Program-made: the position numbers and the translations under genes
Part shown: positions 32,881-50,400 of the stretch, piece after piece
How the letters are laid out: each line of letters starts with the position of its first letter
Numbering within the stretch: the first letter of the stretch is position 1
Source: Pirellulales bacterium
GTDB taxonomy: Bacteria > Planctomycetota > Planctomycetia > Pirellulales > JACPPG01
DNA: 64,000 nt
Direction of reading: 5' to 3'
NCBI GenBank assembly: GCA_036499395.1
Contig: DASYDW010000063.1
Span: 5,911-69,910 of the forward strand
The notes under the pieces: model-generated
The model's database searches: none
The model's input: the letters and a program-made list of their open reading frames with translations, nothing else
What the model was told of the DNA's origin: nothing

Positions 32881-34011
32881 ATGCGGTTTTTCACCTTCGT
32901 CATCAAAAACCTCGTGCGGCGACGATTTCGATCACTACTGACCATCGCCGGCATTGGATTGGCCGTGGGGGCCATGATCGCACTGGTCGGTATATCGCGC
33001 GGCTTTGTCGACTCGTTCCTGGAATTGTATCAAGGACGAGGCATCGACCTGGTCGTCGTGCGGTCCGGCGTCGCCGAGCGCTTGACGAGCGCCCTGGACG
33101 AATCTCTCGGCGACAAGATCCGCCAGTTACCGGGAGTGAAGCAGGTAGCCGGTGTGATGATGGATGTGATGTCGTTTCCCGAACTCAATTTATTCGGCGT
33201 GCCGATCGTGGGATGGGAGCCTGACGCGTTCATGTTCGATAATCTGAAACTGGTATCAGGCCGATCGCCGACGGCCGACGATGGCCGAGTAGTAATGCTG
33301 GGAAACATTCTGGCGAAGAACATGGGCAAGACGACCGGTGACACGCTCGACGTTCTCGAGGACGAACCGTTTCAGATCATCGGCGTCTTCGAAAGCCTCA
33401 GCATGGTGGAAAACGGGTCGATGATCGTGACGCTCGCTGAATTGCAAAGATTGATGGATCGCCGTGGGCGGGTGAATATGCTTAATGTAATTGCCGAAAA
33501 TCGCTTTGACGAAGGATCGCTCGAGCAGCTACGGAGCGCGATCACGGCCGTGGCTCCCGGACTGTCGGCCATGACGACCGAGAATTTCGTCACCAGCGAT
33601 ACGCAGATTCGGGCGGCCCGGGGCATGGCGTGGATGACGTCGCTAGTTGCACTGTTGATCGGCTCGGTCGGAGTGCTGAATACAATGGTGATGTCGGTCT
33701 TCGAGCGGACTCAGGAGATCGGCATCCTACGTGCCCTGGGTTGGCGCAAGTCGCGCGTTGTGCGGATGATTTTGTTGGAAGCGATTCTGTTGAGCCTGGG
33801 CGGAGCGTTATTGGGGGCCGCAGGCGCCGTCGGCCTAACGCGGATGCTGAGTCGGGTGCCGGCGTTCAGCGGCTCGATCGCCAGTCACATTCCGCTGCCC
33901 GTCATTGCTCAAGGATTTTTGATCGCGCTATTCTTGGGATTGATTGGCGGACTTTATCCCGCGGTCTATGGCGCGCGGCTGCAGCCTACCGAGGCGATCC
34001 GACATGAATAA
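32881..34011 (+). CDS. ABC transporter permease, FtsX/MacB-LolC type (N-terminal TM, periplasmic domain, 3 C-terminal TMs)
   Basis: Opens MRFFTFVIKNLVRRRFRSLLTIAGIGLAVGAMIALV. The C-terminal FtsX block is EIGILRALGWRKSRVVRMILLEA ... YPAVYGARLQPTEAIRHE. Length 376 aa. Confidence 0.88.
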   Translation: MRFFTFVIKNLVRRRFRSLLTIAGIGLAVGAMIALVGISRGFVDSFLELYQGRGIDLVVVRSGVAERLTSALDESLGDKIRQLPGVKQVAGVMMDVMSFPELNLFGVPIVGWEPDAFMFDNLKLVSGRSPTADDGRVVMLGNILAKNMGKTTGDTLDVLEDEPFQIIGVFESLSMVENGSMIVTLAELQRLMDRRGRVNMLNVIAENRFDEGSLEQLRSAITAVAPGLSAMTTENFVTSDTQIRAARGMAWMTSLVALLIGSVGVLNTMVMSVFERTQEIGILRALGWRKSRVVRMILLEAILLSLGGALLGAAGAVGLTRMLSRVPAFSGSIASHIPLPVIAQGFLIALFLGLIGGLYPAVYGARLQPTEAIRHE

Positions 34012-34687
34012 TCCATCAACCAACGGTGATTTCCTCCGTACCAGCGGACTGACCAAGGATTACCCTGATGGCAAAGTCACGGCCCTCACAGACGTGAACC
34101 TGGTGATCCCGCGCGGACAGTACGCGGCCATCGTCGGGCCGAGCGGTTGCGGCAAGTCGACGCTGTTGAACCTGCTCGGCGCACTCGACCGGCCCACCTC
34201 AGGAGACGTTTATTTCGAGGGACGGTCGTTCGCCGCGATTGGGGACCTGGATCAGTTCCGCGCCCTGAAGCTCGGTTTCGTTTTTCAGTCGTTTTATCTG
34301 CTACCGATTTTGACCGCGCGCGAGAACGTGCAGATTCCAATGTTTGAAGGTTCACTGGGTGCGGCCGACCGGGCCGCGAGAGCCGGGGAGTTGCTGGAGT
34401 TGGTCGGTATGTCGCATCGGGCCCACCATCTGCCAAAGCAATTGTCGGTCGGCGAACGCCAAAGGGTGGCCATTGCCCGCGCCTTAGCGAATGCTCCTGA
34501 GTTGCTGCTGGCGGATGAACCGACGGGCAATCTGGATTCAAAGGCCGCGCAGGGTATTTGCGACATGTTCGAGCACCTGCACCGCGAACGCGGCATGACC
34601 CTGGTCCTGGTGACGCACGACCAGAACGTCGCTGATCGGGCCGAGCGCATCATTCGCATGCGCGACGGTCGCGTACTCGAGGCATAA
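34004..34687 (+). CDS. ABC transporter ATP-binding protein (MacB/LolD type)
   Basis: Walker A GPSGCGKST, signature LSVGERQRVAIARAL, Walker B LLLADEPT, H-loop VTHD. It overlaps the permease stop by 8 nt. Confidence 0.92.
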   Translation: MNNPSTNGDFLRTSGLTKDYPDGKVTALTDVNLVIPRGQYAAIVGPSGCGKSTLLNLLGALDRPTSGDVYFEGRSFAAIGDLDQFRALKLGFVFQSFYLLPILTARENVQIPMFEGSLGAADRAARAGELLELVGMSHRAHHLPKQLSVGERQRVAIARALANAPELLLADEPTGNLDSKAAQGICDMFEHLHRERGMTLVLVTHDQNVADRAERIIRMRDGRVLEA

Positions 34688-34749
34688 ATCGCAGAGCCGG
34701 CGCGAGGAGGCTTTCGAATATCCCGGGACAATCGGCTATTGCTGCGCAA

Positions 34750-35817
34750 TTGCGTTGGCGCGGTCCGCCGTTTTTGTTAATCATGGGGGGCGCTCCGTGG
34801 CTACCCGCCCTCGACAATTGTTGCGAGATATTGCCTTTGTTCCGTCGAACCAGACTCCTTCTGCGCAGGCTTTCCCCCTTGGTGGGAATCGTCGTTCTGG
34901 CCGCGGTAGCCCGTCCGGCGGCCGGGGCAGATTCGGCCGTTGCCAGTAGTGGATACGACCTCCGCGAGCAATCGCTGCCGAGCATTCGCGCCGGCACGGT
35001 TATCGGCGCTGCGGCTCCTAAGAATTGGTCGCACCTGGTTATCAAAAGCCAGCCTCGCGTCGCGCAGGGCGATGTCAACGATGTATCGCAACTCACACTG
35101 TCGCTGGCGCGATTGCTGTCGGTCAGTATTGTCGCGAATATCGAGGCGAACGACGTGGGAAAGCATCCGCATTATGTGCTCGACCGCGTCGCCCTCGGTC
35201 TGGGAACGCGAATCGGTGGTCGGGACGTGATCATCAATAGCGACACGCAGTCGCAACTCGGCGCCAACCTAAGTTTGCTGGCCCGCACCGTGCTCAGTAG
35301 CACCGAGGCCGAGATGCAATTAATCAGGCAGGTGCTGCGGTCGCAGACCTTGCTGATCTTTGACGTACCCACGATCGCGTTGCTGCAATCGGAACATCAG
35401 CAGATGATCGTCCGTCACGCGCTGATCGTGGATGGGGCGAACGGCCAGTTGAACACGCTGGTCTGGCTCATCGACAAAAGTGACGCGGGGGAATATGCCC
35501 AGGCCGTCGGCACCATGAGTTTGCTCGCGCCCAACACTCTGGAAGACCGACTGCTGAGCGTTGATGCCAACGAATTCACCCTAGGAATTCCTTCGAGCAA
35601 GGCGATCGCGATGGTCCGCATCCCACCGGGAAAGCCAATTGCCATTGCTCCACCATTGCTCCCCTTCGCCTCGGCCCCCCGTTTTACCGATGAGAGCGCG
35701 CGGCAACTCGACGCCGGATTGCGGGACTTGATCCGCCAGGCACAGCGCGACCGAGCGACGGTTCGTGAAAACCCTGGTCCTCCGGCCGCCAACTCAGCCC
35801 GCCCTCGCGGCAAATAA
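34750..35817 (+). CDS. secreted or periplasmic hypothetical protein
   Basis: 355-codon ORF with a signal-like segment RRLSPLVGIVVLAAVARPAAGA. No recognisable motif. Same strand as, and directly after, the ABC ATPase. Start uncertain. Confidence 0.55.
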   Translation: MRWRGPPFLLIMGGAPWLPALDNCCEILPLFRRTRLLLRRLSPLVGIVVLAAVARPAAGADSAVASSGYDLREQSLPSIRAGTVIGAAAPKNWSHLVIKSQPRVAQGDVNDVSQLTLSLARLLSVSIVANIEANDVGKHPHYVLDRVALGLGTRIGGRDVIINSDTQSQLGANLSLLARTVLSSTEAEMQLIRQVLRSQTLLIFDVPTIALLQSEHQQMIVRHALIVDGANGQLNTLVWLIDKSDAGEYAQAVGTMSLLAPNTLEDRLLSVDANEFTLGIPSSKAIAMVRIPPGKPIAIAPPLLPFASAPRFTDESARQLDAGLRDLIRQAQRDRATVRENPGPPAANSARPRGK

Positions 35818-35839
35818 CATTTCCTCGAGTCACACCACG

Positions 35840-36727
35840 ATGTTTGTTCCAACGCTATTGCTCGCGTCGCTCTTGCTGGGCGCCGCGCACGACGACAATC
35901 CGATCCTGAAGCAGTTGGTCGACGCAGGTGTACCGGTCGGCTCGGGGGCACCGCTGAAACTACCGCCGCCCACGTTGCCCGATGGCCTGGACGCGGCCGC
36001 GCAGAAAAAAGCCATACAAGGAATTGCCGACGCCAACCATCCGGTCGATGCTTTGTTGCGTAAGTCGATTGTGTCGCCGTTTCAGCTGATCATTCGTAGC
36101 GAAGGGAATGCCACGGGCGACGTAACCGGTAAGCGAGTCGACATCTGGTGCGTCGTTTACGGAGACCTGTCGACCATCACCAAAGAGGGGTTCCTGGAGG
36201 AGCGGTTCTCGCTCGGATCGAAGGGAGAAAGCAACAACAAGCCCGCTGCGAAGTCCGTAATTCTATCCGCCGAGGAGTTGAAGAAGCGCAACATCCAGAT
36301 CGCGACCGCGGCTGACGCGAAAGAGGGTTTTGCATACGCCAGCTTTTCGCTCTTCGACCGTGTGCAGATTAGCGGGACGGGCCACGTGTATCAGACGCGG
36401 ACGAAGACGTCGGTCCTGATGGCCTCACTCCTGGCGCCTGGCTTTGCTGACGACGCGGACTTTGCCAACCGCTGGGCGGCCATCGATCGTGACAAGGAAG
36501 GGAATTTCAAGGTCGGCGCGCCGCATCCCTACGCAGGCTATGGATCGTACGTAAAGGTGACCGAGCTGATCGAACCGTCAGGGGCCCTGTTTGTGGAATA
36601 CCACTTGGTCTTCGACGAACCGAAAGCCTGGTTCAGCGGGGCGAATCTGCTGCGCTCGAAGCTACCACTGATGGTGCAAGACAATATTCGCAAGTTTCGC
36701 CGCGAAGTGGCAAGCGAGGCGCACTAG
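35840..36727 (+). CDS. secreted hypothetical protein
   Basis: Signal peptide MFVPTLLLASLLLGAAHD. 295 aa with no recognisable motif. Last gene of the plus-strand ABC operon. Confidence 0.6.
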   Translation: MFVPTLLLASLLLGAAHDDNPILKQLVDAGVPVGSGAPLKLPPPTLPDGLDAAAQKKAIQGIADANHPVDALLRKSIVSPFQLIIRSEGNATGDVTGKRVDIWCVVYGDLSTITKEGFLEERFSLGSKGESNNKPAAKSVILSAEELKKRNIQIATAADAKEGFAYASFSLFDRVQISGTGHVYQTRTKTSVLMASLLAPGFADDADFANRWAAIDRDKEGNFKVGAPHPYAGYGSYVKVTELIEPSGALFVEYHLVFDEPKAWFSGANLLRSKLPLMVQDNIRKFRREVASEAH

Positions 36728-36779
36728 AACGGAAGCTACGGCAGGAACAACGTGTTGCAGGCGATAGCCTCGGGACGCC

Positions 36780-37910
36780 TCAGTCGTGTCGTAGCGCGGC
36801 CGTGGGAAGAAGTCGCGCGCTGCGATAGGCTGGGTAGGCCGCCCCTACGAGCCCTACCATCAAAGCCAAAATCCACCCTTCGACCATGACGCGCCAGGGG
36901 ACCGTTCCATCGACTACTCCACTGGCAACGGGCAAGGTGCTCAGGAGCTTCGTCAAGCCGACGGCGCCAAGCGTTCCGATTGCCGCTCCGATCAAACTGA
37001 CGAGTAGCGATTCCGACAGGATCATGCGGACGATGCGTCCTTGACGCCAACCGATCGCGCGAAGGATGCCGATCTCACGCGTCCGCTCCAGTACCGTCAT
37101 GAACATGGTATTCAGCACGCCGATCGTCCCGACGATCAGGCCAATGAGCGCCGTCAGCCACGCCATCCCTTGCACGGCGCGGATCTGCGAAATGCCCGCC
37201 ACGTGATCCTTAATACTCATAGCGGTCAGTCCGGGACTGACCGCTTCTATATCCTTGGCGACGCGTTCAATTAGCGCGACGTTATTGGGTTCGGCAACGC
37301 TGACGGCAAAGCCGGTCACCTGGCCCGGCCGATCCATGAGTCGCTGCAAGTCGGCAAGCGCAATGACCATCGAGCTGTTGTCGAAGACATTGTGACTTTC
37401 ATAGATGCCGACGATGTTGAACTTTTCCAAAGCATAAAGTTCGATCGAATCGCCGAGTTTCTTGCCGAGGTTCTCGGCCAGCGTTCGCCCGATCAGCAAA
37501 GCCTGGCGATCGTCGCCCTGCAGGGCGCGCCCTTCAACGACGTTGAGGTTGCCGACGAGCCGCGACGAGGGCTGCAAGCCGCGCAACGGAACGCCGTACA
37601 GGTTCTGCTCTTCGAACGAGACAACGTCCAAGAGCGTAGGGATCACATCGACTATGTCAGGAACGGAGCGGATCTTATCGCCGATTTCGATGTCCAGGCC
37701 GCTATTTATCCGCTCTTGCACGCCGGTGCGAACGACGATCATGTCGATGCCGGCCCCCAGGTAGACGTCGAGGAAAGACGCCACAAAGCTGTCGGCGATT
37801 CCCACCAGCGCCACCATGGACCCGATCGCCACTGCCACGGCGATCACCGTCAACGCCGAACGCAACCAGCGACGCGTCACGTTGCGCCAGACGAGCGTGA
37901 ACAAATGCAT
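36780..37910 (-). CDS. ABC transporter permease, FtsX/MacB-LolC type, paralog of 32881-34011
   Basis: GGAGG lies 9 nt upstream of the ATG. Opens MHLFTLVWRNVTRRWLRSALTVIAVAVAIGSMVALV. It aligns along its whole length with the plus-strand permease, and both are exactly 376 aa. It starts 118 nt downstream of the NRPS stop on the same strand. Confidence 0.88.
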   Translation of the reverse strand: MHLFTLVWRNVTRRWLRSALTVIAVAVAIGSMVALVGIADSFVASFLDVYLGAGIDMIVVRTGVQERINSGLDIEIGDKIRSVPDIVDVIPTLLDVVSFEEQNLYGVPLRGLQPSSRLVGNLNVVEGRALQGDDRQALLIGRTLAENLGKKLGDSIELYALEKFNIVGIYESHNVFDNSSMVIALADLQRLMDRPGQVTGFAVSVAEPNNVALIERVAKDIEAVSPGLTAMSIKDHVAGISQIRAVQGMAWLTALIGLIVGTIGVLNTMFMTVLERTREIGILRAIGWRQGRIVRMILSESLLVSLIGAAIGTLGAVGLTKLLSTLPVASGVVDGTVPWRVMVEGWILALMVGLVGAAYPAYRSARLLPTAALRHD

Positions 37911-38028
37911 GAGAGGGGCACCTCCAAGACGGACCAAGACCGTGACTATCCCTGTCGCGGTCCGGTAGGTCAAGAGGCCATCGGTGCGATGCCGTCCTGC
38001 GCTGTTCAAACCGACTGAGCCTCGCGAA

Positions 38029-41000
38029 TCACGACTGCATCGTCAGATCCGGATCGATTCCGCGGGCTTCTTTGGCGGACAGCGGCGTCATCGCCGGCGC
38101 GCCATCAATTTCGAACTGCTTGCTGGCCCGCGCCAGCTGGCGACGCAACCGTTGTGCCAAGGTTCGCACGTGTGGTTCACGCATCATCGTCAGATGGTCG
38201 CCGGGAACCGTGCGGCTGCGCAGGTCTTCGGTCACATGATTTTCCCAAGAGGATGCTGCTGTCGGGACCTCGTCGCGGGGCCGCTCTTCGGCTTTCAACA
38301 GAGCGACGGGCCCCTGGTAGGATTGCGGACGAAACGCCAGCCAGGCGCGGCAATTCGCTTCGAACACTTCGTAGTGCCGCTCGATTTCCCAGCGATCCGC
38401 ACCCGGTTGAACTAGGCCGGCTCCCTCGATCTGGCGGCCAAAAAGAACTAGCTTCTCGGAGCGGGAGAGTGCCCGAATTTGGTCCGGCAGCATTTGCTCG
38501 ACGGAAGGAAACATCGACATCAACGCGGCAAAGGCGTCATCGCCTTCCTCTTGCGAATTGTCCTGCGCCGCCTGCGAGTCAATCAGCACCACTAGCGGCA
38601 CCTGCTCGCGAACATGGGCCAATTGCCGCGCCATTTCGTACGCCACGAGCCCGCCAAAGGACCAGCCTGCCAGGTAATAGGGGCCCTCGGGTTGGATCGT
38701 CCGGATTGCCTGAATGTAATCGCGGGCCATCGCTTCGACCGTCTCGTGAAAGGCTTCATGGCGAGCCAGGCCGCGCGACTCGAGCGCGTAAACCGGCTGA
38801 TCCGCGCCCAAGTGATGCGCCAAGGCGTAGTACGGAAAAGCGCTGCCGCCGGCCGGATGAACGCAGAATAGCGGCGGGCGATAGCCGGTTCGGCGAATCG
38901 CCACGAGCGGCGAACCACGATGCCGTGCCGCAGCCGCGCGCACCACCGCCGCCATCGTCGCGATCGTGGTGGCCGTGGCCATCTCGCTCGGCAGAAGGAC
39001 GATGTCGTTTCTCGCGGTGAATTTTGCCAGACATTGGTGGGCCGACTGCTGGCCGTCTCCCAGTCCGACGAGATTGTCTTCGACACCCAGCGGGCTGAGT
39101 CCCAACGTTTCCTGGCAAATATCGGTGAGCTCTGCTTCCAAGGCATTGCGGGGCGCGACATACCGGGAGAGGGCCGCTTCTCGCAGCGATGCGACGGACG
39201 CGCAGTCGACAATCATGTTGCGGAGGGCGTCGAGGAAGGCGCCTATCACGCGTTCGACCGTCTCGCGTTGATGTAACCCTTCGCAGTAGGTCCAGTCAAA
39301 GCGCAATTGGCCCCCCACGATCACGCCATTAATTTCCAGCAAATGCGTGCGATGCTGCCGCGACGAGCGCATCGAGCCGACCGACTCGCTTGCCGTGCGC
39401 AGCCGTCCGCCGGAATTCGCAAGCTGGTCGACCTGGCCGAGATAGTTGAAGGCGATCTCGGGTTGCGGCAGTGTCGCGAGCGCAGTGGTCACGGTTTCGT
39501 CCTGGCACAAGTACTTGAGCGTTCCGAATCCGATACCACGGCGAGGAATGTCCCGCAGCTGCGCTTCCATAGAGCTCACAGCGCGGCGGACGTCGGTTGT
39601 TTGATCAAGGCAGAGTCGAACCGGGAAGACACTTGTGAACCAGCCAACGGTACGCGACAGATCGACGTCGTCGAACAGGTCCTCGCGGCCGTGCCCTTCC
39701 AGATCGACCAGTAACGAATCTTCGCCGGTCCACTTCTGGAACGCTTGGGACAGGGCCGTCAGCAGGATGCTATTCAAGGGCGCGCGGTACGCGCGAGAAA
39801 CATCTTCCAGGAGCCGTCGCGTTTCGTCCACCGCGAGTGACGCCGATACAGTACGGGCGGAAGCGATCGAATTCTCCTCGCATCCCTTGTAAGCATGACC
39901 ATTGCTACCGGATTGTGTGTGGCCATTTCTCGTGTGCGAGGAAGTGGACGAAGCGGCGCCTTGGACCGGCAGGCGATCGACGGGGAGGTGCTTAAACGGA
40001 GCTTCCGCCAGCCGGAGCCAATAGTCGAGCTCCTCGCGAACCAGTGCCGACTGAGCGTACTCGATCAACCGCTCCGACCATCGCTGATACGAGGTCGTCT
40101 TGGCGTTCAAGCAGGGCGCCTCGCCGCGGCTGAGCTGCTGATAGATCAGATGCAAATCCTCGAGTAGGATGCGCCACGAGAAGGCATCCACCGCCAAGTG
40201 ATGAATGACGAATAGCAATCGACTCGGGCGTGCCGGACCAAGGTCGATCAGGCACACACGCACGAGCGGTCCCTCGGCCAGGTTCAAGCTCGCTTGCAAC
40301 TGCGTGGCAACGGCTTCGATCGCGTTCGGCTCCTCGCTGGTCGGAACTCCGGCAAGATCCACGCGGCAGTAGAGCTCGGCCTTATCGCTGGCGTCATTGG
40401 ATTGTTTCCAACCATTCTTCTCGCGAACAAAGCGCAGACGCAGAGCGTCGTGGTGCGCGACGAGATGCTCCACCGAGGCCTGCAGAAAGGAGGGTTCCAG
40501 GCGATCGTCGACTTCGAGCATGACCGCCTGGTTGAAGTGCTCAGGCGCGGCGAGTCGTTGTTCGAAGAACCAATGCTGAATGGGGGTTAACGGGACCGGC
40601 CCCACAACAGCTTCCTGTGCTGCTGCGGTGGCAAGGATCGGCACGGCCACGGTCGCCTGCTCGGCAACGGTTTGATGCTCGAATAACTGGCGTGGCGTCA
40701 GGCGCAATCCGACGCGTGCGGCGCGCGAGATGACTTGCATACTCAGGAGTGAGTCGCCGCCAAGTTCGAAGAAATTGTCGTGAATTCCGACCCGCTCCAA
40801 ACCGATCACGCCGGCCCAAATATCGGCCAGGGTCACTTCGACGTCGGTACTCGGGGCTACGTAGCATTGGTCGAGCACGGGACGGCTGCGATCGATCCCG
40901 GGCAAGCTATTCCGATCGACCTTACCGTTGGGGCTTACCGGCAGAGCCGGCAGCGCGACGAAAGTGGACGGGATCATATAGTCGGGAAGATGCGACTTGA

Positions 41001-44000
41001 TGAACTGATGCAGTTCCGTGGTCGTGGGCGCCGGAAGTTCGCCTGTGCCGACGTAGGCCACCAGCCGCTTTTCGCCCGATTCCTGTTCGCGCACGACAAC
41101 GACTGCTTCGCGGATTGCGGGGTGCGCGGTCAGCGCCGCTTCAATTTCTGGCAACTCGATGCGGAAACCGCGAACCTTGACTTGATCGTCGATTCGCCCC
41201 AGGAATTCCAGCTTGCCGTCAGCCCGGTAGCGAGCCAGGTCGCCCGTGCGGTACAGACGTCCGCCGGATCGACCGCTGAAACGATCGGGCAAGAACTTTT
41301 CAGCCGTCAGCTCGGGGCGATTCAGGTAGCCACGCGCCACGCCGACACCGCCGATATAGATCTCGCCGGGCATGCCATGCGGCACTGGTTCGAGGTGCCG
41401 ATCAAGCAAGTACACATTGACGTTGGCGAAGGGGCGGCCCAGGGCGGGCGCGCGTCCCTCGCCCGCATGGCATTCCCCTTCGGTTGCGCCTACCGTTGCT
41501 TCGGTGGGGCCGTAACCGTTGATCATTCTCCGGCCCGGCGCCCAACGATCGACCAATTTCGCTGAGCAGGCCTCGCCGGCGACGACCAACGTGCTCAAAT
41601 GTGGCAGAGGGGCGGCAGGCAATACCGACAAGACCGACGGTGGCAGGATGACAAACGTGATGCGATGATCGTCGAGCAACCGGACTAGATCAGGTCCTGG
41701 TATCAACGCGTCCTCGGGCGCCATGTATACCGATCCACCCACGGCTAACGTGGCAAAGATCTCCAGGACCGAGGCGTCGAAGTTGGGCGAAGCGAATTGC
41801 AATGTTCGACGTTCGCTGCCAGGACCGATCCATCGTGCGGCCACGGCCACGGCATTGCACACGCCACGGTGCTCGATGAGTGCACCCTTGGGCTGCCCGG
41901 TGGATCCGGAAGTGTAAATCACATAGGCCAGATTATTGGCAGTGGCCGTCCGTTGGGGATTCTCGGTCGACGCGGAGCAATCGCCTGCCGTTTCGTCGGC
42001 GAACACCATCCGGGTATTTTGCGCGGCGAAAACCGTGGCGAGTTCACGGGAGGTGACGACTACGTCGAGCTGTGCGTCGCGGAGGATCAGGTCGAGCCGC
42101 GCGGCGGGGTAATGTGGATCGAGCGGCACATAGGCGCCCCCCGCTTTGAGAATACCCAGCATGCCGGCCACTAGCTCGACCGATCGATTGAGGCAGATGC
42201 CGACCAAGACGTCGGGGCCGACACCCATCGTGCAGAGGCGATGCGCCAATCTGTTGGCCCGCTCGTTGAGCTGACGGTAAGTGAGCACCTGCTCTTGGAA
42301 ACAAAGGGCGACGGCATCGGGGTTTTCTTCCACCTTGCGCTCGAACAATTCATGAACGCACACGTCGTCGGCAAATCGGATCCGTTCGCCTGCTGCCGCG
42401 GCGAGCAGACGTTGGCGGTCATGCATACCTACCAGCGTGAGCTTCGAGATCGGATTGTCCGGTGCGGTGACCGCGGCGCCCAACAGCGTTTGGAAGGATT
42501 CGAGCAGGTGTTCGACGTTCTCCTGATCAAATAGATCCGTATTATATTCCAGCCCACCAACGAGTCGGCCGGCCTCTTGCCTGAGCGAGAGGGTAAGGTC
42601 ATGCCGCGCTGTGCCATTGTGAACTTCTTGGAAGGTCAAGTTCGGTCCGGTGAATTCGAGCGGCGCGTTCTGCAGGATGAGTGCCGCCTGGTAGAGCGGT
42701 GAGTGGCTCAGTACCCGCCGCGGCGCAAACGCCTCGACCAATCGCTCGAACGGAAGGTCCTGATGCTCGTACGCTTCCAGGGTGACCTGTCGTGTCCGTG
42801 CTAGCAGGTCGCGGAACGTCGGATCGCCTGACAGGTCGCCGCGCATCACAAGAGTGTTGACGAAAAAGCCGATCAGCCCTTCCACCTCTGGTCGGGTTCG
42901 ATGGGCAACGGCCGTGCCCACGCTGATGTCGGCTTGGCCCGTATAGCGCGAGAGAAGCGTCTGAAACGCCGCGAGCAGCGTCATATACAGCGTCGCCTGC
43001 TGCTCACGGCTAAACTGCTCCACCGCTTGCGACAGGGAGAGCGGTAGGCTCACGGGAAGGAGCGCGCCGTGAAACGTCTGCAGCGCCACACGCGGTCGAT
43101 CAGTCGGCATCGCGAGCACTGCAGGCCCGTCTTCCAGCTTGCCTCGCCAGTATTCGAACTGCGGGCTAAGCGCATCGTCGGTGCATGTTGTCCGCTGCCA
43201 GGCGGCGAAATCGGCGTATTGAATATCGAGGTCCGCCAGTGGTGATCGTTGACCGTTGGAAAAGGCCTCATAGATCAATAGAAGTTCGCGGAGAAAAACA
43301 CCCATCGACCAGCCATCGGAGATGATGTGGTGCATCGCCAACAGCAGCACGTGCTCGTCTGCCGTCAAATGCAGGTGCGTCACGTTCCACAGCGGGCCGG
43401 TCGCCAGGTCGAAGCGTTGCCGCGCCGCGGCCGATGAGATGCGCTCGACCTCGGCAGCGCGATTCATCGTGTCGAGTTCGCGTAAATCAAATTGCGCGAT
43501 CGGAACGGCGCCCAACGAGCTTACGCGTTGCTGCGGCAGTCCGCCCGCATCCACAAACGTCGTGCGAAGCGATGCATGGCGGCGAGCAATTTCCGCAAGG
43601 CTCTTTTCCAGCAGCGCCGTCTGCAGGTCGCCGCGGAAGCGCGCTGAAAGACAGAGGTTGTTTACCGGTACTTCCGGCAGCAATTGGTCGACAAACCACA
43701 ACCGCTGCTGCCCAAACGAGAGCGGCGAATCGTCCCGCTGATCGGCAGGGACGATCTTCGTAGGGCTTGCCGCGGAAGGGGTGGCGTAGTTCCGTTCAAC
43801 GACAGGGGCCAACTCGGCGACCGTGGGATGAGCAAACAACTCGCGCAGCGGCAGAGTGACGCCGCAAGCCGCCGAGACGCGCGACATGAGTTGCGTCGCC
43901 AGCAGTGAATGGCCACCGAAATCGAAGAAGTTGTCGTGGATTCCCAGGTCGTCCTGGCGAAGCACTTCGACCCAGATCTTCAGCAGCGTTCGCTCGGTAT

Positions 44001-45798
44001 CGGTGCGTGGGGGGACTGCTTCTCGCCCCTCGGCTCCGCCGCTGCTATTGTCGCACCGGCTGGCGTTCCATTGTGTCACGACCGCCAGATGGTCACTCAG
44101 ATAATCATCGCGGCAGGATCGGCGGCGGATCTTGCCGCTGGTCGTTTTACCGATGGTGCCGGCCTTGATCAGCACGATGGCTTCGACTGGCAGGTCGTGC
44201 TCAGCGAGTATTGCGCCACGTATCGACCTTACGATCTCGTTGAGATCGAGTTGCTTGGGACGGGTGACTTCCTGCACGACGACGAGCCGTTCTTGACCGT
44301 CGCGTTCCATCGAGAACGCCGCCCCGCCATCGATCTTTAAGGCCGGGTTGCAGGCCCAAATGGTGCGCTCGATGTCTTGCGGATAATAGTTCCGGCCACA
44401 GATGATAATCAGGTCCTTGAGTCGGCCGGTGACATACAGCTCGCCGGCATGCAAGAACCCCAAGTCGCCGGTGCGCAAAAACGGACCATCACCGGAGTCC
44501 GCCAGGCGAGCCGCGAACGTGCTCCGCGTCTCCTCGGGACGATTCCAATAGCCCTGCGCCACGCCGGGGCCGCGTACCCAGATTTCTCCTACGCGATCGG
44601 ATGCGGCGCGCGTGAGCGTTTGCGGATCGACGATCACGACCTCGGTTTCCTCGATCGCGGGACCACAGCTTGCCAGGGTTCGTGAATTCGATTTCCCATT
44701 CAAATTGGCAACGACCTGATTCTCCTCCAGATTCGTTGCACAAAAGTCACCGACGGTGTAGAGACTTTCGTGGTCTCCGCCAGTGACGCCCAAGGTGGCT
44801 TCGGCCAGCCCGTAACAGGGAACGAACGCCGTCGGGCGAAAGCCACAGGGGGCGAAGGTCTGAGTGAATCGCTCCAACGTGTCGCGACGAACCGGCTCGG
44901 CGCCATTGAGGATGACTGCCAGGCTGGTCAGATCGAGGGCTTTGATCTCCGCGGGCAGTACCGTTCGCGAGCAAAGATCGAAGGCAAAATTCGGGGCGCC
45001 GGTGATTGTGCCACGATAGCGGGAAATCGCCTCGAGCCACCGAATGGGCCGTTGCATGAAGTCTAGCGGCGACATGGAAATCGTCTGTCGGCCAGCATAC
45101 ATCGGCAGGAGCACGCCACCGATCAAACCAAAGTCGTGGTAGGCGGGCAGCCAAGTAACGCCAACGACGCCTTGGCTCTGGCCGCGGTCGATCTTCGCCA
45201 CGTTGTAGAGCAGGTTGGCGTGGCTCACCATCACACCGCGCGGCGTACCGGTTGAGCCGGAGGTGTATTGCAATAACCCCAGTGTCGTAGAGGTAATCGT
45301 CGGCGGCGTCCAATCGTCTTCGCACCCGACAGGGAGTGCGTCGGTGGCCAATATCATGCGAATCGAGGGACCGATCGTCACGAGTGCCTGGACCCAAGTC
45401 AGACTGTTCGCCGTGCCGAGCACCGCAACGGCCTGTGCGTCGTTGCACACGGCCTGCAGCCGGGGAAGCGTGCGATCCATGCGCAATGGATCAGGCGGAT
45501 AGAGCGGTACCGGTGTCACGCCGGCGTATAAGCAACCAAAGAATGCGGCAATGTAGTCAAGCCCTGGCGGATACAACAACAAGGCCCGGCCGCCGGTGGC
45601 GCCCGCGGCATTCAATCGCACCGCGATGCGGCGCGCGATCACGTCCAACTGACCGTAAGTGAGATTGAGCTCGTCTCGTTCGCCGTCAGTCAGGAACGTA
45701 TAAGCGATCTGATCCGCTTGGAGGTTTGCCCGGTAGCGGCACATTTCCAGAAACGTTTCCACTTCTGGAATCGGTAAGTCCCTCGATAACTCCGACAT
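38029..45798 (-). CDS. non-ribosomal peptide synthetase, single amino-acid module with lipo-initiation: FAAL-T-C-A-T-E-T*(degenerate)-TE
   Basis: One uninterrupted ORF. Domain motifs are listed in the domain features below. The ATG at 45798 (MSELSRD) is preferred; an alternative TTG lies at 45816. Confidence 0.93.
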   Translation of the reverse strand: MSELSRDLPIPEVETFLEMCRYRANLQADQIAYTFLTDGERDELNLTYGQLDVIARRIAVRLNAAGATGGRALLLYPPGLDYIAAFFGCLYAGVTPVPLYPPDPLRMDRTLPRLQAVCNDAQAVAVLGTANSLTWVQALVTIGPSIRMILATDALPVGCEDDWTPPTITSTTLGLLQYTSGSTGTPRGVMVSHANLLYNVAKIDRGQSQGVVGVTWLPAYHDFGLIGGVLLPMYAGRQTISMSPLDFMQRPIRWLEAISRYRGTITGAPNFAFDLCSRTVLPAEIKALDLTSLAVILNGAEPVRRDTLERFTQTFAPCGFRPTAFVPCYGLAEATLGVTGGDHESLYTVGDFCATNLEENQVVANLNGKSNSRTLASCGPAIEETEVVIVDPQTLTRAASDRVGEIWVRGPGVAQGYWNRPEETRSTFAARLADSGDGPFLRTGDLGFLHAGELYVTGRLKDLIIICGRNYYPQDIERTIWACNPALKIDGGAAFSMERDGQERLVVVQEVTRPKQLDLNEIVRSIRGAILAEHDLPVEAIVLIKAGTIGKTTSGKIRRRSCRDDYLSDHLAVVTQWNASRCDNSSGGAEGREAVPPRTDTERTLLKIWVEVLRQDDLGIHDNFFDFGGHSLLATQLMSRVSAACGVTLPLRELFAHPTVAELAPVVERNYATPSAASPTKIVPADQRDDSPLSFGQQRLWFVDQLLPEVPVNNLCLSARFRGDLQTALLEKSLAEIARRHASLRTTFVDAGGLPQQRVSSLGAVPIAQFDLRELDTMNRAAEVERISSAAARQRFDLATGPLWNVTHLHLTADEHVLLLAMHHIISDGWSMGVFLRELLLIYEAFSNGQRSPLADLDIQYADFAAWQRTTCTDDALSPQFEYWRGKLEDGPAVLAMPTDRPRVALQTFHGALLPVSLPLSLSQAVEQFSREQQATLYMTLLAAFQTLLSRYTGQADISVGTAVAHRTRPEVEGLIGFFVNTLVMRGDLSGDPTFRDLLARTRQVTLEAYEHQDLPFERLVEAFAPRRVLSHSPLYQAALILQNAPLEFTGPNLTFQEVHNGTARHDLTLSLRQEAGRLVGGLEYNTDLFDQENVEHLLESFQTLLGAAVTAPDNPISKLTLVGMHDRQRLLAAAAGERIRFADDVCVHELFERKVEENPDAVALCFQEQVLTYRQLNERANRLAHRLCTMGVGPDVLVGICLNRSVELVAGMLGILKAGGAYVPLDPHYPAARLDLILRDAQLDVVVTSRELATVFAAQNTRMVFADETAGDCSASTENPQRTATANNLAYVIYTSGSTGQPKGALIEHRGVCNAVAVAARWIGPGSERRTLQFASPNFDASVLEIFATLAVGGSVYMAPEDALIPGPDLVRLLDDHRITFVILPPSVLSVLPAAPLPHLSTLVVAGEACSAKLVDRWAPGRRMINGYGPTEATVGATEGECHAGEGRAPALGRPFANVNVYLLDRHLEPVPHGMPGEIYIGGVGVARGYLNRPELTAEKFLPDRFSGRSGGRLYRTGDLARYRADGKLEFLGRIDDQVKVRGFRIELPEIEAALTAHPAIREAVVVVREQESGEKRLVAYVGTGELPAPTTTELHQFIKSHLPDYMIPSTFVALPALPVSPNGKVDRNSLPGIDRSRPVLDQCYVAPSTDVEVTLADIWAGVIGLERVGIHDNFFELGGDSLLSMQVISRAARVGLRLTPRQLFEHQTVAEQATVAVPILATAAAQEAVVGPVPLTPIQHWFFEQRLAAPEHFNQAVMLEVDDRLEPSFLQASVEHLVAHHDALRLRFVREKNGWKQSNDASDKAELYCRVDLAGVPTSEEPNAIEAVATQLQASLNLAEGPLVRVCLIDLGPARPSRLLFVIHHLAVDAFSWRILLEDLHLIYQQLSRGEAPCLNAKTTSYQRWSERLIEYAQSALVREELDYWLRLAEAPFKHLPVDRLPVQGAASSTSSHTRNGHTQSGSNGHAYKGCEENSIASARTVSASLAVDETRRLLEDVSRAYRAPLNSILLTALSQAFQKWTGEDSLLVDLEGHGREDLFDDVDLSRTVGWFTSVFPVRLCLDQTTDVRRAVSSMEAQLRDIPRRGIGFGTLKYLCQDETVTTALATLPQPEIAFNYLGQVDQLANSGGRLRTASESVGSMRSSRQHRTHLLEINGVIVGGQLRFDWTYCEGLHQRETVERVIGAFLDALRNMIVDCASVASLREAALSRYVAPRNALEAELTDICQETLGLSPLGVEDNLVGLGDGQQSAHQCLAKFTARNDIVLLPSEMATATTIATMAAVVRAAAARHRGSPLVAIRRTGYRPPLFCVHPAGGSAFPYYALAHHLGADQPVYALESRGLARHEAFHETVEAMARDYIQAIRTIQPEGPYYLAGWSFGGLVAYEMARQLAHVREQVPLVVLIDSQAAQDNSQEEGDDAFAALMSMFPSVEQMLPDQIRALSRSEKLVLFGRQIEGAGLVQPGADRWEIERHYEVFEANCRAWLAFRPQSYQGPVALLKAEERPRDEVPTAASSWENHVTEDLRSRTVPGDHLTMMREPHVRTLAQRLRRQLARASKQFEIDGAPAMTPLSAKEARGIDPDLTMQS
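38137..38874 (-). other. NRPS domain: type I thioesterase
   Basis: PLFCVHPAGGSAFPY, GWSFGG nucleophile elbow (Ser codon 2386, 38659-38661), and a late GDHLTMM His region. Confidence 0.88.
38941..39162 (-). other. NRPS domain: degenerate carrier-like domain lacking the phosphopantetheine serine
   Basis: YVAPRNALEAELTDICQETLGLSPLGVEDNLVGLGDGQQSAHQCL aligns without gaps to the YVAPxxxxExxLxxIWxxxLGxxxxGxxDNFFxLGGDSLxAxQL consensus. The core GGDS is replaced by GDGQ (39046-39060). Confidence 0.7.
39202..40602 (-). other. NRPS domain: epimerization (E) domain
   Basis: PLTPIQHWFF, HHLAVDAFSWRIL (HH at 40198-40203), EGHGRE (39682-39699), RTVGWFTSVFPV. These motifs together separate E domains from ordinary C domains. 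The domain contains a Ser/Thr/His/Gly-rich low-complexity insert. Confidence 0.8.
40627..40854 (-). other. NRPS domain: peptidyl carrier protein 2
   Basis: IHDNFFELGGDSLLSMQV, with Ser codon 1689 (40750-40752). Confidence 0.88.
40909..42363 (-). other. NRPS domain: amino-acid adenylation domain
   Basis: LTYRQLNERANRLA, LAYVIYTSGSTGQPKG, FDASVLEIF, NGYGPTEATV, GEIYIGGVGVARGYLNRPELT, YRTGDLARY, KVRGFRIELPEIE, NGKVDR. Confidence 0.9.
42412..43734 (-). other. NRPS domain: condensation domain (probable starter/lipid-accepting C)
   Basis: SFGQQRLWFVDQL (C1) and MHHIISDGWS (C3; the HH pair is at 43327-43332). Confidence 0.85.
43771..43998 (-). other. NRPS domain: carrier protein 1 (acyl carrier)
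   Basis: IHDNFFDFGGHSLLATQL. The phosphopantetheine Ser is codon 637 counted from the TTG ORF start at 45816 (43906-43908). Confidence 0.85.
44032..45798 (-). other. NRPS domain: fatty acyl-AMP ligase (FAAL)-type adenylation domain
   Basis: TFLEMCRYRANLQADQIAYTFL opening, QYTSGSTGTPRGVMVSHANL, YGLAEATL, FLRTGDLGF, GKIRR. It is followed directly by a carrier domain, not a CoA-ligase context. Confidence 0.8.
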
Positions 45799-47491
45799 GC
45801 TCAGCCCTTTGCCCAATCTTCAATCGCATCGCGAAGCATTTAAAGGAAGGTCGCGATCCATGAAATACGACCGCCTGACGTCGACCGGGCGGTCTAATGA
45901 CCAGTGCCGGACGAGGTCGAATTTGCAGGCGACGTGCCTGAAACAGGCGTGCATTCAAGAAAGCGCAGTCCAACCCTATATGTTACTATTGTCTTTCCCC
46001 GTCTAGACATTAGTACAGTGGCTCCGCACCGCCTCCCAGGCTACCTTGCCGCAAAACGACCCTCAAGTAAAAACCCCAAGAGGCCAGGCGTTTCTGCGTG
46101 CTACACTGGTCCGATTTTGTCCCCTATTCCGGCCAGTTCGAAGGGATACCGTTCACTAATGGCGGTCCGGCATCCCGAAAAATGGCCACTCGAAGGGGAA
46201 ATACTTCTTCGATAAAAATGAGTTGAACAGCCCACTCAGTAGCCGGCGCTGAAATTGCACTAATCGAATCGGTGGGACCGCAGCGATGGGCGCCGGTCAG
46301 AAATTATCCATGCATACTGAGTGGTGCGCCACTGCCGCGAACTACTTCTCCGATTTGCTTCGGTCCGACACACCGACGCAGTGGTGCGAAAACAAAGTCC
46401 GGTATCCGCCCATCCGGCACAGTCGAAGCGCATGAATCGTTTCAGAAAACGACCAAATAACGAGACGAGTAAAGTACCAACGTCCGCCGTTATCGAATGC
46501 TGCAAACGGACAAGCGGTCCGGTTGTGCTCGGACGGCAATGACATCACCGGAACGAGCAGTTGCGGAAAGTTGTCATTTCTAAGACTGCTCCGTTTTAGG
46601 AACCTTTGATAGGACCCATTGGTGTGCTGCTGCGACTAAATTAGAGTTTCGCGTTCGCTCCGTTTCACCGCATTGACCCGAATGGGCGGTATTGGGGAAA
46701 AACGCGCGGCCGACCCGCCATACGCCAGGCGCTTCGAACGCTTCCTCGCCATTTCCACATACGCAGGCCGTACTTGATGCGATTTGCAATCTTCGCGCCC
46801 TTGACGATGCCGACGGCATCGGCGACGGATTTTTTGGTCAGACAGTGCCTCCGATTACATCCATCACAACAAGAGATCGGAACCTTCGGGCAAAGAAGGG
46901 CTGCTCGATGTGCGGATAATCGATGGTCTGCGACGCTCCTATCTTGGGTATCGCACGATCAAGCTGCAGCCCCTGGCCAGAGTGCAGCGTCCGTATCGCG
47001 GCTAGCCCATTAAGAGACGCCCTACGAGAAAGCCCGCGCCGGTGAAGGCCCCTCCTCCTTCGAAAAAGTTGGAACTGTAACGCAGCATCATGGCGGTCAC
47101 GAATCGGGCCGGAACGGCGCTGTTTGCATCCGCGGATTTGTTGCGGATGAATTTCCGTGGAAATGCCAGGAAGGCGATTGGTATTAGTTGCCGTGCGACT
47201 CGTCGTGTTTGCGAGTGAAAGTCGCTGACGGCCATGTTCTCTGGCTCTCATTTGTTCAAGGCAGATGGGGGGCTTATCGCCGGTGCGTCGCGCATTGCCC
47301 GCGCTATGTAGTTGCCGTCGTGACAAGTCCCCCCTATGTGCGACGAGTTGCGCGCAAATCCTGCGTTGTGACTTGTTTCTGCGCTGCGCGATGTTTACAA
47401 CGTGCGCCTACCAACTGCGCTACATCGAGTGCAAAGCCTGGCGAACAGTCTTCGCAGGTCTTGGTAACCGCGGCTTTCTAAGGGGGCATCC

Positions 47492-50400
47492 GTGGGTGAA
47501 AATTCTGGCTGGTCGTCCACCAACGTCTTGCTGCCCGGCGCGATTGCGCTGGCCTTGGCGATCACAAGCTACTTGACCTATGAGCCGACGCTGACATCCG
47601 TTCGACCGGCGGCACGTACGGTCCACGGGATTCCCCCGCCACCGACCCCGGATGGGATGGAGGCGTTCTATTCGCGATTGTGGGAAGACCCCCTGCTGAC
47701 CTCGTACAACAACCAGACAGCCAAAGGTGACGCGAACGCAAAGGATGACGCAAAACCGCAGCCGACTTATACAGCTGGTCCGGTGCCGTTGAACGAAGAC
47801 TGGGATGCGGCCTACAAGGACACCTTCACGAAGATTCTGAAGAAAAGTCACGGCAGCCTGCTATGCGTGCCCGTACTCGTTCCTGGCGGACCGTATGCGG
47901 ACGACGGCGAAGCGCGGATGCGAACCCGTTACGCGATCCAGATGGGGCTCGCCCGCGCGGGCTATGAGCTGGCCTTTCCGATGCAAATGAGCTACGTCGA
48001 CGTACCTGTGACCGTCGACATCGACGACGTCCCCGTACAAGTGTGTGCGAAACGATTTCGCGTTCCGGTGAAAATCTTTAGCTTTCGCTCGGAATCAAAG
48101 AAGGACAAAGGCAAGAATCAGCCTGACTTTGTCGTCGTCTTGTGGATTAACGAAGACGAAGCAGGTAGCCGGCTATTGAACGTGGTCGACCAGGTAGTCG
48201 CTGCGCTGTTCAGGCCAAAACGGCGCAGCGAAAGCGTGCGCGACCAGTTTCGCGCTGATCGCGAGTGGCGCGCGCGGATGAGCGTCCGCGTGATCGGGCC
48301 CTCCTCGTCCGACGGCCTGCGAAAAATCTACTTAGAGCAGCGCAGCACCCACCCGCATAAGACCGAGCCGCAGATCCCGCTCGCCGGCTTTCGCGACCCA
48401 AAGATTTATTCGCCGCGCGCCACGATTTCACACGATGAGCTGGAAGAGTTGGTAAACGAGCAACTCGCGATTCGGCAAGCGTCAAGCGGCAACAACGCCC
48501 GAGCCGAGATGAAGACGGCGACCTCGGTCGCTGTGTTTCCTCCCATCATTCGCACGATCGGCGATGACAACGTGCTGATCGAGGCGTTGATTGGCGAGCT
48601 AAAGCGGCGTAATCATTGGCTGCCGCCACCGGAATGCGACTGCAAAGTCGCACCAACGCAGCCGGACGACCATTATGGCGCGAAGAGGGAGCGAACCGGC
48701 GACAGGCAGAAGGGTGGGGCCATCGTGCTGGTCTCCGAGCAAGACACTCTCTATGGCCGGACATTTTCCAGGTTGCTCGATGACCGTCGTCCGGGCCACT
48801 CGCTCTACAGATACTCGTTCTTTCGCGGCCTCGACGGCGCGATACCCGGCGATCGAGCACCGGCGATCGAGTCCGAGCTACATAGCCTGTTGGATCGCGC
48901 GCAACATCCTGTGACAAGCCAAGACGGCGACAACGAGCCTCGCCCGACCGGCAAGGGACAAGCCGATTATCTGCGGCGGCTGGAATCGAAGTTAGTTGAT
49001 TTGGACGACCGAGAATGGGAACACGGCATCGCAGCCATTGGCGTTGTGGGCACTGACCAGTACGACAAGTTACTATTCCTGCGCGCGCTACGGCGACAAT
49101 TCCCGCGCGCCGTCTTCTTCACCACCGATCTCGACGCGGACTTCGCACATCCTAGCGAGCGTTTGACAACCCGCAACGTCGTCGTGGCATCGCATTTTGG
49201 CTTGCAGCTGAGTTCAGCGTTGCAGTGGGATGTACCGCCGTTTCGCGATTGCTACCAGACGTCGACTTTTTTCGCGGCCTTATTGGCGCTCGGCCCGAAA
49301 GCGGTCGATGATCTGCCGGAATCCGTGAAGAACAATCCGTGGGGCGAGCACGGAAACAGCACAGATGCGGAACACTTGAAACCATTGGTTTATGAAATCG
49401 GTCTGGACGGGCCGTACCAGTTGACGATCCCCCAAGGCCCGTACGAAACCGACGGCCAAACTCAGGTTCAGCCGGATAGCCCACGGAGCTTTTTGCCGTC
49501 GTCGCGCCGCTTGGCGGCATTGTTAATGGCGACCGTGTCGCTAGTAATGCTTCTGATCGTGAGCTTCACGTGGCCGCGTCGGCTGATTCGGTCAGAACGT
49601 ACCAAGAGCTTTGCGACATTTCTAGTCGCGCTCGGCGGGATGACGATTGGTTTTGTGACACTATTCTTGGTTCTATGGGCACTGGAGTTGTTTGATCATC
49701 ACCGTGACGACGGTGAGCCCTTTTCATGGAACCGGGGCATTAGTCTATGGCCGACGATCTTGATTCAACTCTTGGCGGGCGTGACGGCGTTTGTCTTGTT
49801 CTTGTCCAGTTGCAATGACCTGAAGAAGCTACGTAACCACTTCTGGAAATGGGCCAACCCGGTTCTCCCCAAGGACTCTAAGCCGCCAACATCTGGTCAG
49901 GCGTTTCGAAATATGTCGTGGCAGGAAAGGGCCGCCTATGTCTGGGACGACGTTCTGACGTTTAATTGGCATGCCCAGGCTGCTGACGAAATCTATTCTG
50001 CCCGCAAGCTGTGCGCCGAATACGTCGAACGATCGCAATGGTGGCATCGGATGCTGCGCGTCGTGCCACAGGTGGCGTTATTCGTGGCGTTTACGATCTG
50101 CTTGTTTCAAATTACCGCACTCCCCACACGTCCCTTTCGTGGCTGGCTGTGCTATCGGGCTTCTTCCATTGCAATTCTTGTGGCTTTGTTTTCACCGGTC
50201 GTACTATCCTTCTTCATGATCGACGCGATGCAACTGTGCCGGCGTTATATTCGCCTGTTGGAGCAGGCCACTCCCGACTGGCAGAACCGCGAGTTCAGCG
50301 ACCTGATGAAGGCCAGGGTATTTCCGTCAACTGGGGACGACCAACAGTCGGCGAATGCTGAACTCACGCCGAATGACGCCGAGCAAAAGCCGAGTGATGG

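Follow-up and report, generated by a model that had tools for sequence, protein, structure and literature searches.

The window analyzed here, i.e., the whole 64-kb stretch of contig DASYDW010000063.1 from a Pirellulales bacterium, contains a six-gene cassette between 32.85 and 45.82 kb. The cassette encodes a nonribosomal peptide synthetase (NRPS), two ATP-binding cassette (ABC) permeases called permA and permB, one ABC ATPase, and two unannotated, predicted secreted proteins called unk1 and unk2. The genes are arranged as NRPS, permB, unk2, unk1, ATPase, and permA when read from the NRPS side, and the features of the locus are the following:

32881-34011, plus strand: permA, 376-aa permease of the predicted type VII ABC class (MacB/FtsX fold), opens the plus-strand operon
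34004-34687, plus strand: ATPase, the nucleotide-binding domain (NBD) protein, 227 aa, PF00005; its 5' end overlaps the 3' end of permA by 8 nt
About 34783-35817, plus strand: unk1, predicted secreted protein of an unannotated family of about 300 aa; start uncertain
35840-36727, plus strand: unk2, predicted secreted protein of 295 aa with a predicted START/helix-grip (Bet v 1-like) fold
36728-36779: convergent gap of 52 bp between the unk2 stop and the permB stop
36780-37910, minus strand: permB, paralogous permease of 376 aa, ATG at 37910 and stop at 36780
37911-38028, minus strand: spacer of 118 nt between the NRPS stop and the permB start
38029-45816, minus strand: NRPS of 2595 aa with the domain order FAAL-T-C-A-T-E-(degenerate T)-TE, i.e., fatty acyl-AMP ligase, thiolation (carrier), condensation, adenylation, thiolation, epimerization, degenerate thiolation, and thioesterase

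PermA and permB align from end to end without a single gap, with 180 of the 376 residues identical (48%) and 72% positives, which is far beyond chance (BLASTP, E 6e-132). A first-pass annotation of the window had described them as two convergent paralogues of equal length, and the three peptide pairs that it quoted are all found in the two translations. Both proteins have a periplasmic MacB_PCD domain between transmembrane segments (TM) 1 and 2 (PF12704, cut-off 27; 80.2 bits over residues 18-221 in permA and 69.2 bits over residues 18-216 in permB), and a C-terminal FtsX domain comprising TM2-TM4 (PF02687, cut-off 25.5; 68.3 bits in permA and 69.8 bits in permB). As judged from these matches they are 4-TM permeases of the type VII ABC (MacB/FtsX-fold) superfamily, and the nearest solved sequence is that of MacB (5gko, E 3e-17). 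The program-made open reading frame (ORF) of permB opens at a TTG at 38009, upstream of the ATG at 37910, and a GGAGG is found 11 nt upstream of this ATG. The identity between the two permeases peaks at 75% in the cytoplasmic coupling loop between TM2 and TM3, while it is lowest in the periplasmic domain (43%) and in the short periplasmic loop (32%). The high identity of the coupling loop would fit a common ATPase on which both permeases dock.

The ATPase matches PF00005 with 117.5 bits, and its translation displays the Walker A (GPSGCGKST), signature (LSVGERQ), Walker B (LLLADEPT), and H-loop (THD) motifs. Its top NCBIfam matches are LolD, YbbA, MacB-NBD, and FtsE, all of them under the equivalog cut-offs; LolD is the best (221 bits vs. 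a cut-off of 308), while YbbA obtains 203 bits vs. 336. The description of the plus-strand operon as a permease, an ATPase, and two secreted unknowns agrees with the coordinates, the Pfam matches, and the signal-like N-termini. That permB has no ATPase of its own was also borne out, as neither tblastn using the ATPase as query nor Pfam scans of the other large ORFs revealed a second ABC ATPase in the window. Since a MacB-fold permease depends on an NBD for its function, permB must borrow an ATPase. No Pfam match to an HlyD-type membrane-fusion protein (MFP) or a biotin-lipoyl adaptor was obtained for the neighboring or other large ORFs of the window, and the Pfam scans of its ORFs found no TolC-like gene. 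Judged by its gene content, the cassette is not a tripartite pump.

The Pfam matches of the NRPS are two AMP-binding domains, a DIP2-like FAAL C-terminal domain, AMP-binding_C, two PP-binding domains, two Condensation domains, and a Thioesterase. Motifs were assigned using the established NRPS core-motif scheme. FGGHSL and LGGDSL are found in the first and second T, HHIISDG in the C-domain, and GWSFG in the TE. The second region matching Condensation displays the epimerase motifs PIQHWF, HHLAVDAFSW, EGHGRE, TVGWFT, and FNYLG, and in the T-like stretch between E and TE the phosphopantetheine serine is replaced (…DNLVGLGDGQQ…), making it a degenerate T. The epimerase region and the degenerate T comprise approximately residues 1730-2320 of the NRPS (window 40000-38029, minus strand). 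The domain order places the enzyme in the class of FAAL-initiated synthetases, with a FAAL loading domain and carrier ahead of C-A-T and a TE for release. The simplest prediction for the product is an N-acyl-D-amino acid or a closely related compound, which would be a membrane-resident amphiphile. Type VII transporters extract such amphiphiles from the outer leaflet, as described for LolCDE (PMC8333309) and YbbAP-TesA (PMC12646458).

The two secreted proteins both have hydrophobic, signal-peptide-like N-termini lacking a lipobox cysteine. Unk2 belongs to a family of proteins of about 300 aa, for which 229 homologues were found, all annotated as "hypothetical," and none with a Pfam domain. Those with a named source belong to Pirellulales, and the genome-scan loci containing unk2 are all labelled Planctomycetota. 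The AlphaFold2 (AF2) model of unk2 (pLDDT 89.2, pTM 0.86) consists of an antiparallel sheet (strands 82-261) around a 25-residue C-terminal helix (270-294). When this model was compared with the PDB using Foldseek, the top 13 matches were all START-type proteins (StAR, CERT, STARD3/MLN64, and a bacterial "CERT START"), with E-values from 6.5e-5 to about 1e-3, probability 1.0, and a TM-score of about 0.5 on the target. The START entries are followed by PYR/PYL and further Bet v 1-like proteins. Unk2 thus shares with the START domains of StAR, CERT, and STARD3 the helix-grip arrangement, where an antiparallel sheet surrounds a long C-terminal helix, but it is about 80 residues longer and has the signal-peptide-like N-terminus, and on the basis of the latter it is predicted to be periplasmic. 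No match to a START/Polyketide_cyc2-type family was found for any of 43 members at E<=1, and no PDB sequence match was found. According to the model, unk2 is START-like at the fold level only, and a lipid-binding role is predicted.

The ORF of unk1 opens at 34750, and the JGI gene call is 311 aa. An exhaustive profile search recovered 670 cluster representatives of this family at E<=1e-3, while searches of Pfam, NCBIfam, and the PDB sequences gave no match. The AF2 model has a moderate pLDDT of 76, and Foldseek found no significant match to it in the PDB (best E 0.4). The possibilities that unk1 is a membrane-fusion adaptor or a LolA found no support, given this result and the lack of Pfam and PDB-sequence matches. 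NCBIfam, Pfam, and Foldseek searches of the PDB found no LolA family or structure for either unk1 or unk2, and no membrane-fusion adaptor is among the Foldseek matches of the two. They are not paralogues of each other either (hhalign probability 0.2%). Relatives of unk1 adjoin unk2 and/or permeases of the same family in several of the loci described below (L004, L008, L013, L018, L027, L029, L032, L037, L040, L117, L119, L121, and L122). In most lineages unk1 is closely paired with permB, which suggests that unk1 is a permease-specific periplasmic partner.

Related loci, here given L-numbers, were gathered via unk2 (genome scan), via permeases of the permB clade (metagenome scan, with approximately 10 close family members among the 80 loci listed), and by single look-ups. 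Three independent relatives (L001, L002/L003, and L007) have all six genes in an unchanged order, in which the NRPS and permB share one strand and face unk2, unk1, the ATPase, and permA on the other. In these relatives permB is 78-85%, permA 72-79%, and the ATPase 83% identical to the window genes. Their flanks are unrelated, containing pectate-lyase-like genes, SBP_bac_10, and an ECF sigma factor with a kinase. A tblastn comparison using every ORF located at 26-52 kb of the window showed that the conservation runs from the start of permA to the start of the NRPS. A wider cluster including a sulfotransferase, a hybrid histidine kinase, and a 1126-aa ORF was considered and rejected, since none of these is conserved beside the cassette in the relatives.

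More distant relatives are found in L004, L008, and L117. They encode permB-like proteins that are 49-53% identical to permB, and the ATPase, unk1, unk2, and a FAAL-NRPS are present in a convergent arrangement. These loci are rearranged, as unk1 is located directly 5' of permB while unk2 stays behind the A-ATPase genes, and the NRPS, instead of preceding the permB operon, is transcribed divergently from it. The L117 sequence ends inside the ATPase gene, and permA is thus seen in L004 and L008, but not in L117. The permA orthologues are always directly upstream of the ATPase (72-79% identity in L001, L002, and L007, 54.5% in L004). Because unk1 swaps between the permA and permB operons, there is good evidence from gene order that the two convergent operons serve one system. 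In total, seven loci are of the A/B type (the window, L001, L002/L003, L004, L007, L008, and L117), and an NRPS is found in 7/7 of them in spite of the differing flanks and the rearrangements. The NRPS orthologues are 66% identical in L002, and 37-49% in L004, L008, and L117; that of L004 is longer (>3500 aa), and the products would therefore differ between lineages.

A comparison of gene neighborhoods had been named beforehand as a check on the proposed association between the permeases, the ATPase, and the NRPS. The outcome was mostly favorable. In its favor, the permeases, the ATPase, unk1/unk2, and a FAAL-NRPS occur together in every A/B-type locus recovered. Against it, unk1-permB pairs without permA or an ATPase within about 3 kb were also found (L121 and L122, short contigs), and the default of the family is one permease with one ATPase. 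PermB does lie downstream of the NRPS, whose stop precedes the permB start by the 118 nt given above. The further suggestion in the first-pass annotation, that permB is under NRPS control, fits the close relatives of the window, but not L004, L008, and L117. As the NRPS is divergent from the permB operon in these three loci, read-through from the NRPS into permB is, judged from gene order, not a conserved feature. A scan for transcription units gave promoter and terminator counts equal to the shuffled expectation. Two promoter-like sites were found vs. 1.7 expected, the single sigma-70-like match in the 118-nt spacer is within chance expectation, and no terminator-like site above chance was found in the region of the 52-bp gap between unk2 and permB.

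The most frequent extra neighbor in the family is an S49/NfeD-like peptidase that matches PF01343 and, weakly, NfeD1b_N; it recurs in 13 related loci, i.e., L004 (7865-8893), L005, L008, L011, L013, L016, L036, L037, L039, L042, L043, L117, and L122. It opens an S49-unk1-permB operon in L004 and L117, and is absent from the window and its closest relatives L001, L002, and L007. In L121 a sulfatase is found directly upstream of the unk1-permB pair. In some contigs from long-read metagenome-assembled genomes (MAGs; L001, L005, L006, L008, and L011) the NRPS, ATPase, unk2, or permease genes are split into pieces lying side by side. The splits most likely reflect frameshifts introduced by assembly and not pseudogenes, and the gene calls in these contigs therefore understate the number of intact genes.

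When a family locus is defined as one containing a permease of at least 40% identity, 29 such loci are found among the matches listed. Two permeases and one ATPase are found in 11 of these, one permease and one ATPase in another 11, one permease and no ATPase in seven, and two permeases with two ATPases in none. Among the matches listed, the two-permease loci thus have exactly one ATPase in 11/11 cases. Not all of them are organized like the window, as a second layout where permease, ATPase, and permease form one operon is found in L011, L016, L022, L036, L039, and L043. These tandem operons are usually convergent with unk2. Single-permease systems with accessories of the unk1/unk2 type are found in L037, L042, L048, L061, and L119, and in L042, L048, and L061 the permease-ATPase pair is convergent with unk2. 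In L119 (1-15900) a single permease-ATPase pair ends a polyketide synthase (PKS) operon encoding KS-AT-KR, PS-DH, ACP, a hydrolase, KR, and two methyltransferases, and faces an unk1-unk2 operon with a MerR regulator. By its gene content, L119 links the transporter family to polyketide-type lipids in addition to NRPS products. Other single-permease relatives are found beside an NRPS (L013 and L040), while plain single-permease systems are seen in L120 and in L005/L006, the latter with divergent ATPase and adh_short genes.

A neighbor-joining tree of the permeases with known context was calculated using 300 bootstrap replicates. The B clade (permeases from the window, L001, L002, L007, L004, L117, and L118) is supported by 98% of the replicates, the A clade including the L004 copy by 73%, the "tandem-up" clade of upstream copies by 93%, and the "tandem-down" clade of downstream copies by 99%, while A and B as exclusive sisters obtain 3%. 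A recent local duplication was for this reason rejected as the origin of the pair; A is nearer to the "permease-ATPase" singles and B to the singles with a divergent ATPase. Based on the tree, A and B are old, separately conserved lineages, and systems with two permeases and one ATPase seem to have originated on at least two occasions within this permease family. None of the B-clade genes seen have an ATPase in their own operon, while most other clades have one. In 7/7 A/B-type loci the sole nearby candidate is the ATPase behind permA.

Type VII ABC systems such as MacB, LolCDE, FtsEX, and YbbAP are defined by their periplasmic partners. The first-pass annotation had called the arrangement LolCDE-like, and this holds for the layout. 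As in LolCDE-LolA, there are two paralogous 4-TM permeases of approximately 400 aa whose periplasmic domain is inserted between TM1 and TM2, a separate gene for the ATPase, and no membrane-fusion protein; a soluble periplasmic acceptor, as proposed here, would be a further likeness. The best NCBIfam matches of the permeases and the ATPase are moreover Lol models. The likeness does not extend to family membership, since the scores fall short of the cut-offs for LolCE and LolD. The permeases obtain 72.9 and 78.5 bits vs. a cut-off of 362.45 for the LolC/LolE model TIGR02212, and 23-47 bits vs. cut-offs of 439-540 for the models specific for LolC and LolE. The cassette differs from LolCDE also in that its permeases are encoded on opposite strands, are linked to an NRPS, and lack a clear C/E-type asymmetry, and in that its partners are the START-like unk2 and an unk1 of no recognizable fold rather than LolA. 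Both LolCDE-LolA and YbbAP-TesA are type VII systems in which hydrophobic molecules are extracted and handed to a periplasmic partner (PMC12646458; PMC5985334). YbbAP-TesA shares with the cassette the layout without an adaptor and with a periplasmic partner. YbbP is, however, one fused polypeptide containing two permease units, while the cassette has two separate genes, and TesA is a GDSL hydrolase, while the partner in the cassette has a START-like binding fold.

A precedent for NRPS-linked type VII exporters is found in the MacAB homologues encoded by NRPS clusters of Pseudomonas (PMC5985334). The cassette resembles these MacAB-TolC-type systems (PvdRT-OpmQ and the MacAB of Pseudomonas lipopeptides and phytotoxins) in having a MacB-fold permease beside an NRPS cluster, and these pumps are presumed to export an amphiphilic product from the periplasmic side (PMC5985334). 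It differs from them in that the window contains no gene for a MacA/HlyD adaptor or a TolC-like protein, in that the NBD is encoded by a separate gene (227 aa) and the 376-aa permeases start at TM1, and in that two permease paralogues are found instead of a homodimer. The MacB model gives 52-63 bits for the permeases vs. a cut-off of 966. DevBCA/HgdBCD of heterocystous cyanobacteria likewise combine an FtsX-type permease with a separate ATPase in envelope lipid export tied to PKS/lipid clusters (PMC5985334), and the PKS operon of L119 is a parallel to this. The devC model nevertheless gives 20 and 23 bits vs. 290.35, and the cassette has two permeases and no DevB-type MFP. By the curated NCBIfam cut-offs, membership in LolCDE, MacB, and DevC was thus ruled out. 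A literature search on planctomycete MacB with NRPS found nothing relevant.

The explanation that accounts best for these data, and to which we assign about an even chance of being correct, is that the cassette is one unit consisting of a lipid-making NRPS, a LolCDE-like A·B·(ATPase)2 extractor, and a periplasmic hand-off. Gene content, homologies, linkage across relatives, the 2:1 ratio of permease to ATPase genes, the lack of an ATPase in the B lineage, and the predicted fold of unk2 are established by the analysis, while the pairing of A with B, the nature and direction of what is transported, and its transfer to unk2 are inferred. The NRPS would make a lipoamino acid or a lipopeptide, which would partition into the cytoplasmic membrane. 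The A·B·(ATPase)2 complex would then lift the lipid out by ATP-driven mechanotransmission, and unk2 would take it into its START-like cavity for onward delivery. Unk1, docking mainly on permB, may assist or confer specificity. As it stands, the cassette is a well-supported genomic association and not a demonstrated mechanism.

Several observations weigh against this explanation. The loci were retrieved through relatives of unk2 or permB, and the architecture counts are thus biased. Loci with a single permease and one ATPase, presumably encoding homodimers, are as common as the pairs (11/29 listed), and the tree places neither A nor B as the nearest relative of the other. Between the two clades just seven positions show fixed differences, all of them conservative, so that a LolC/LolE-like specialization of A vs. 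B gives no clear signal. The START likeness of unk2 is at the level of the fold, with TM-scores of approximately 0.4-0.5, large root-mean-square deviations, and 8-15% identity, and homologues of unk2 are often alone, without any permease within 10 kb. The unk1-permB bicistrons of L121 and L122 have no A or ATPase in the 2.7-3.5 kb visible on each side. Nothing related is found in the 8 kb downstream of the permease in L118, where the upstream side is cut off, and at the P0104 locus a convergent pair of B-related permeases is found in an 11-kb contig containing neither an ATPase nor an NRPS.

Some of these observations would also fit a system in which the two permeases do not form a heterodimer. 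It is possible, although we consider it rather unlikely, that two homodimers, A2·D2 and B2·D2, share one pool of ATPase and maybe serve different steps or substrates, each with its own periplasmic partner (A with unk2 and B with unk1). The family default of one permease and one ATPase would be retained, and the self-sufficient modules of permease-ATPase with convergent unk2 (L042, L048, and L061), the separate unk1-permB bicistrons, and the non-sister relationship of A and B without obvious asymmetric specialization would all fit. Since there is no LolC/LolE-like signature of divided labor, the residue-level comparison does not discriminate between an A·B heterodimer and two homodimers. Against two homodimers, one ATPase is kept in all of the two-permease loci listed, the B lineage is ATPase-less across deep divergence, and unk1 moves between the A and B operons. 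Moreover, in LolCDE, the one well-studied precedent for two permease paralogues with one ATPase gene, the permeases heterodimerize (PMC5985334). A transition between the two states is also documented, as homodimeric LolDF and heterodimeric LolCDE represent such a switch (PMC13575116; PMC13350855), and the frequent single-permease relatives of the cassette may be compared to the LolDF homodimers.

The borrowed ATPase could also be encoded elsewhere in the genome, in which case the convergence with the A-ATPase operon would reflect shared regulation or a shared substrate and not shared subunits. Permeases of the B clade or related to it occur without an ATPase in the visible neighborhood at L118, L121, L122, and the P0104 locus, and ATPases therefore act in trans somewhere in the lineage. 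For the cassette itself this explanation appears improbable, since the A-operon ATPase is the only one offered nearby in all seven A/B-type loci, no second one exists in the window, and the coupling loop of permB is so similar to that of permA. We give an equally low probability to a housekeeping role in the envelope, e.g., trafficking of lipoproteins or membrane lipids, or protease-linked quality control, where the NRPS would be a neighbor without being related to the substrate. Such a role would be consistent with unk1/unk2 homologues and family permeases often occurring without any NRPS, with the S49/NfeD-like peptidase, which is not biosynthetic, as the most frequent extra neighbor (13 loci), and with LolCE and LolD as the best NCBIfam matches. 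The scores for these models are, however, far under the equivalog cut-offs, and a housekeeping role does not account for the NRPS in every A/B-type locus, for the single-permease relatives that end a PKS operon (L119) or adjoin an NRPS (L013 and L040), or for the patchy distribution with several paralogous systems in one MAG. L022 and L118 for instance share one MAG.

The remaining part of the window contains several other genes of note. The sulfotransferase (PF00685; 30883-31842, plus strand) mentioned above is located 1 kb upstream of permA, and a sulfatase (50909-52537, minus strand) is found 5 kb beyond the NRPS; neither is conserved beside the cassette in the relatives. A 2947-aa ORF (6383-15226, minus strand) contains two GH94 supersandwich domains, a GH94 catalytic domain, and a glucoamylase-like domain, and encodes a giant glucan phosphorylase/synthase-like protein unrelated to the cassette. 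A stand-alone ORF of 508 aa (1933-3462, minus strand) gives a sub-threshold match to Condensation (23 bits vs. a cut-off of 30.6) and adjoins a PAP2-family gene (1259-1888); going by this match, the protein is possibly a free-standing member of the C-domain superfamily with acyltransferase function. A 370-aa ORF (19643-20755, minus strand) matches IIGP/IRG-like interferon-inducible GTPase and MMR_HSR1; IIGP/IRG-like proteins are a dynamin-like type of GTPase that is uncommon in bacteria. Two large ORFs on the plus strand, at 47492-50872 (1126 aa) and 60944-63847 (967 aa), have no Pfam match.

The type VII superfamily includes homodimeric, heterodimeric, and fused arrangements (PMC5985334). As these, and the switch between LolDF and LolCDE, are already documented, the two-permease form of the cassette is a variant and not a new principle. 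What is new is a Planctomycetota-specific branch whose encoding is split and convergent, its repeated association with FAAL-NRPS or PKS genes, and two unannotated partner families, of which that of unk2 is START-like. More broadly, and tentatively, the Planctomycetota may have a Lol-like route of their own, in which a type VII extractor with one or two permeases hands lipids made by NRPS or PKS to the START-fold unk2 and the novel-fold unk1, often joined elsewhere by the S49/NfeD-like peptidase. To our knowledge, only a handful of partner types are known for type VII ABC systems. If the proposed route is real, it would be the first case in bacteria of a START-type lipid shuttle that works in the periplasm and is coupled to an ABC transporter, and transitions from homodimer to heterodimer would recur within one type VII family. 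Its confirmation would add a new partner class for mechanotransmission transporters and provide a compact natural system for the interconversion of two-permease (LolCE-like) and one-permease (LolF-like) forms. For the planctomycetes themselves, it would represent an export or trafficking route for their lipoamino acids and lipopeptides.

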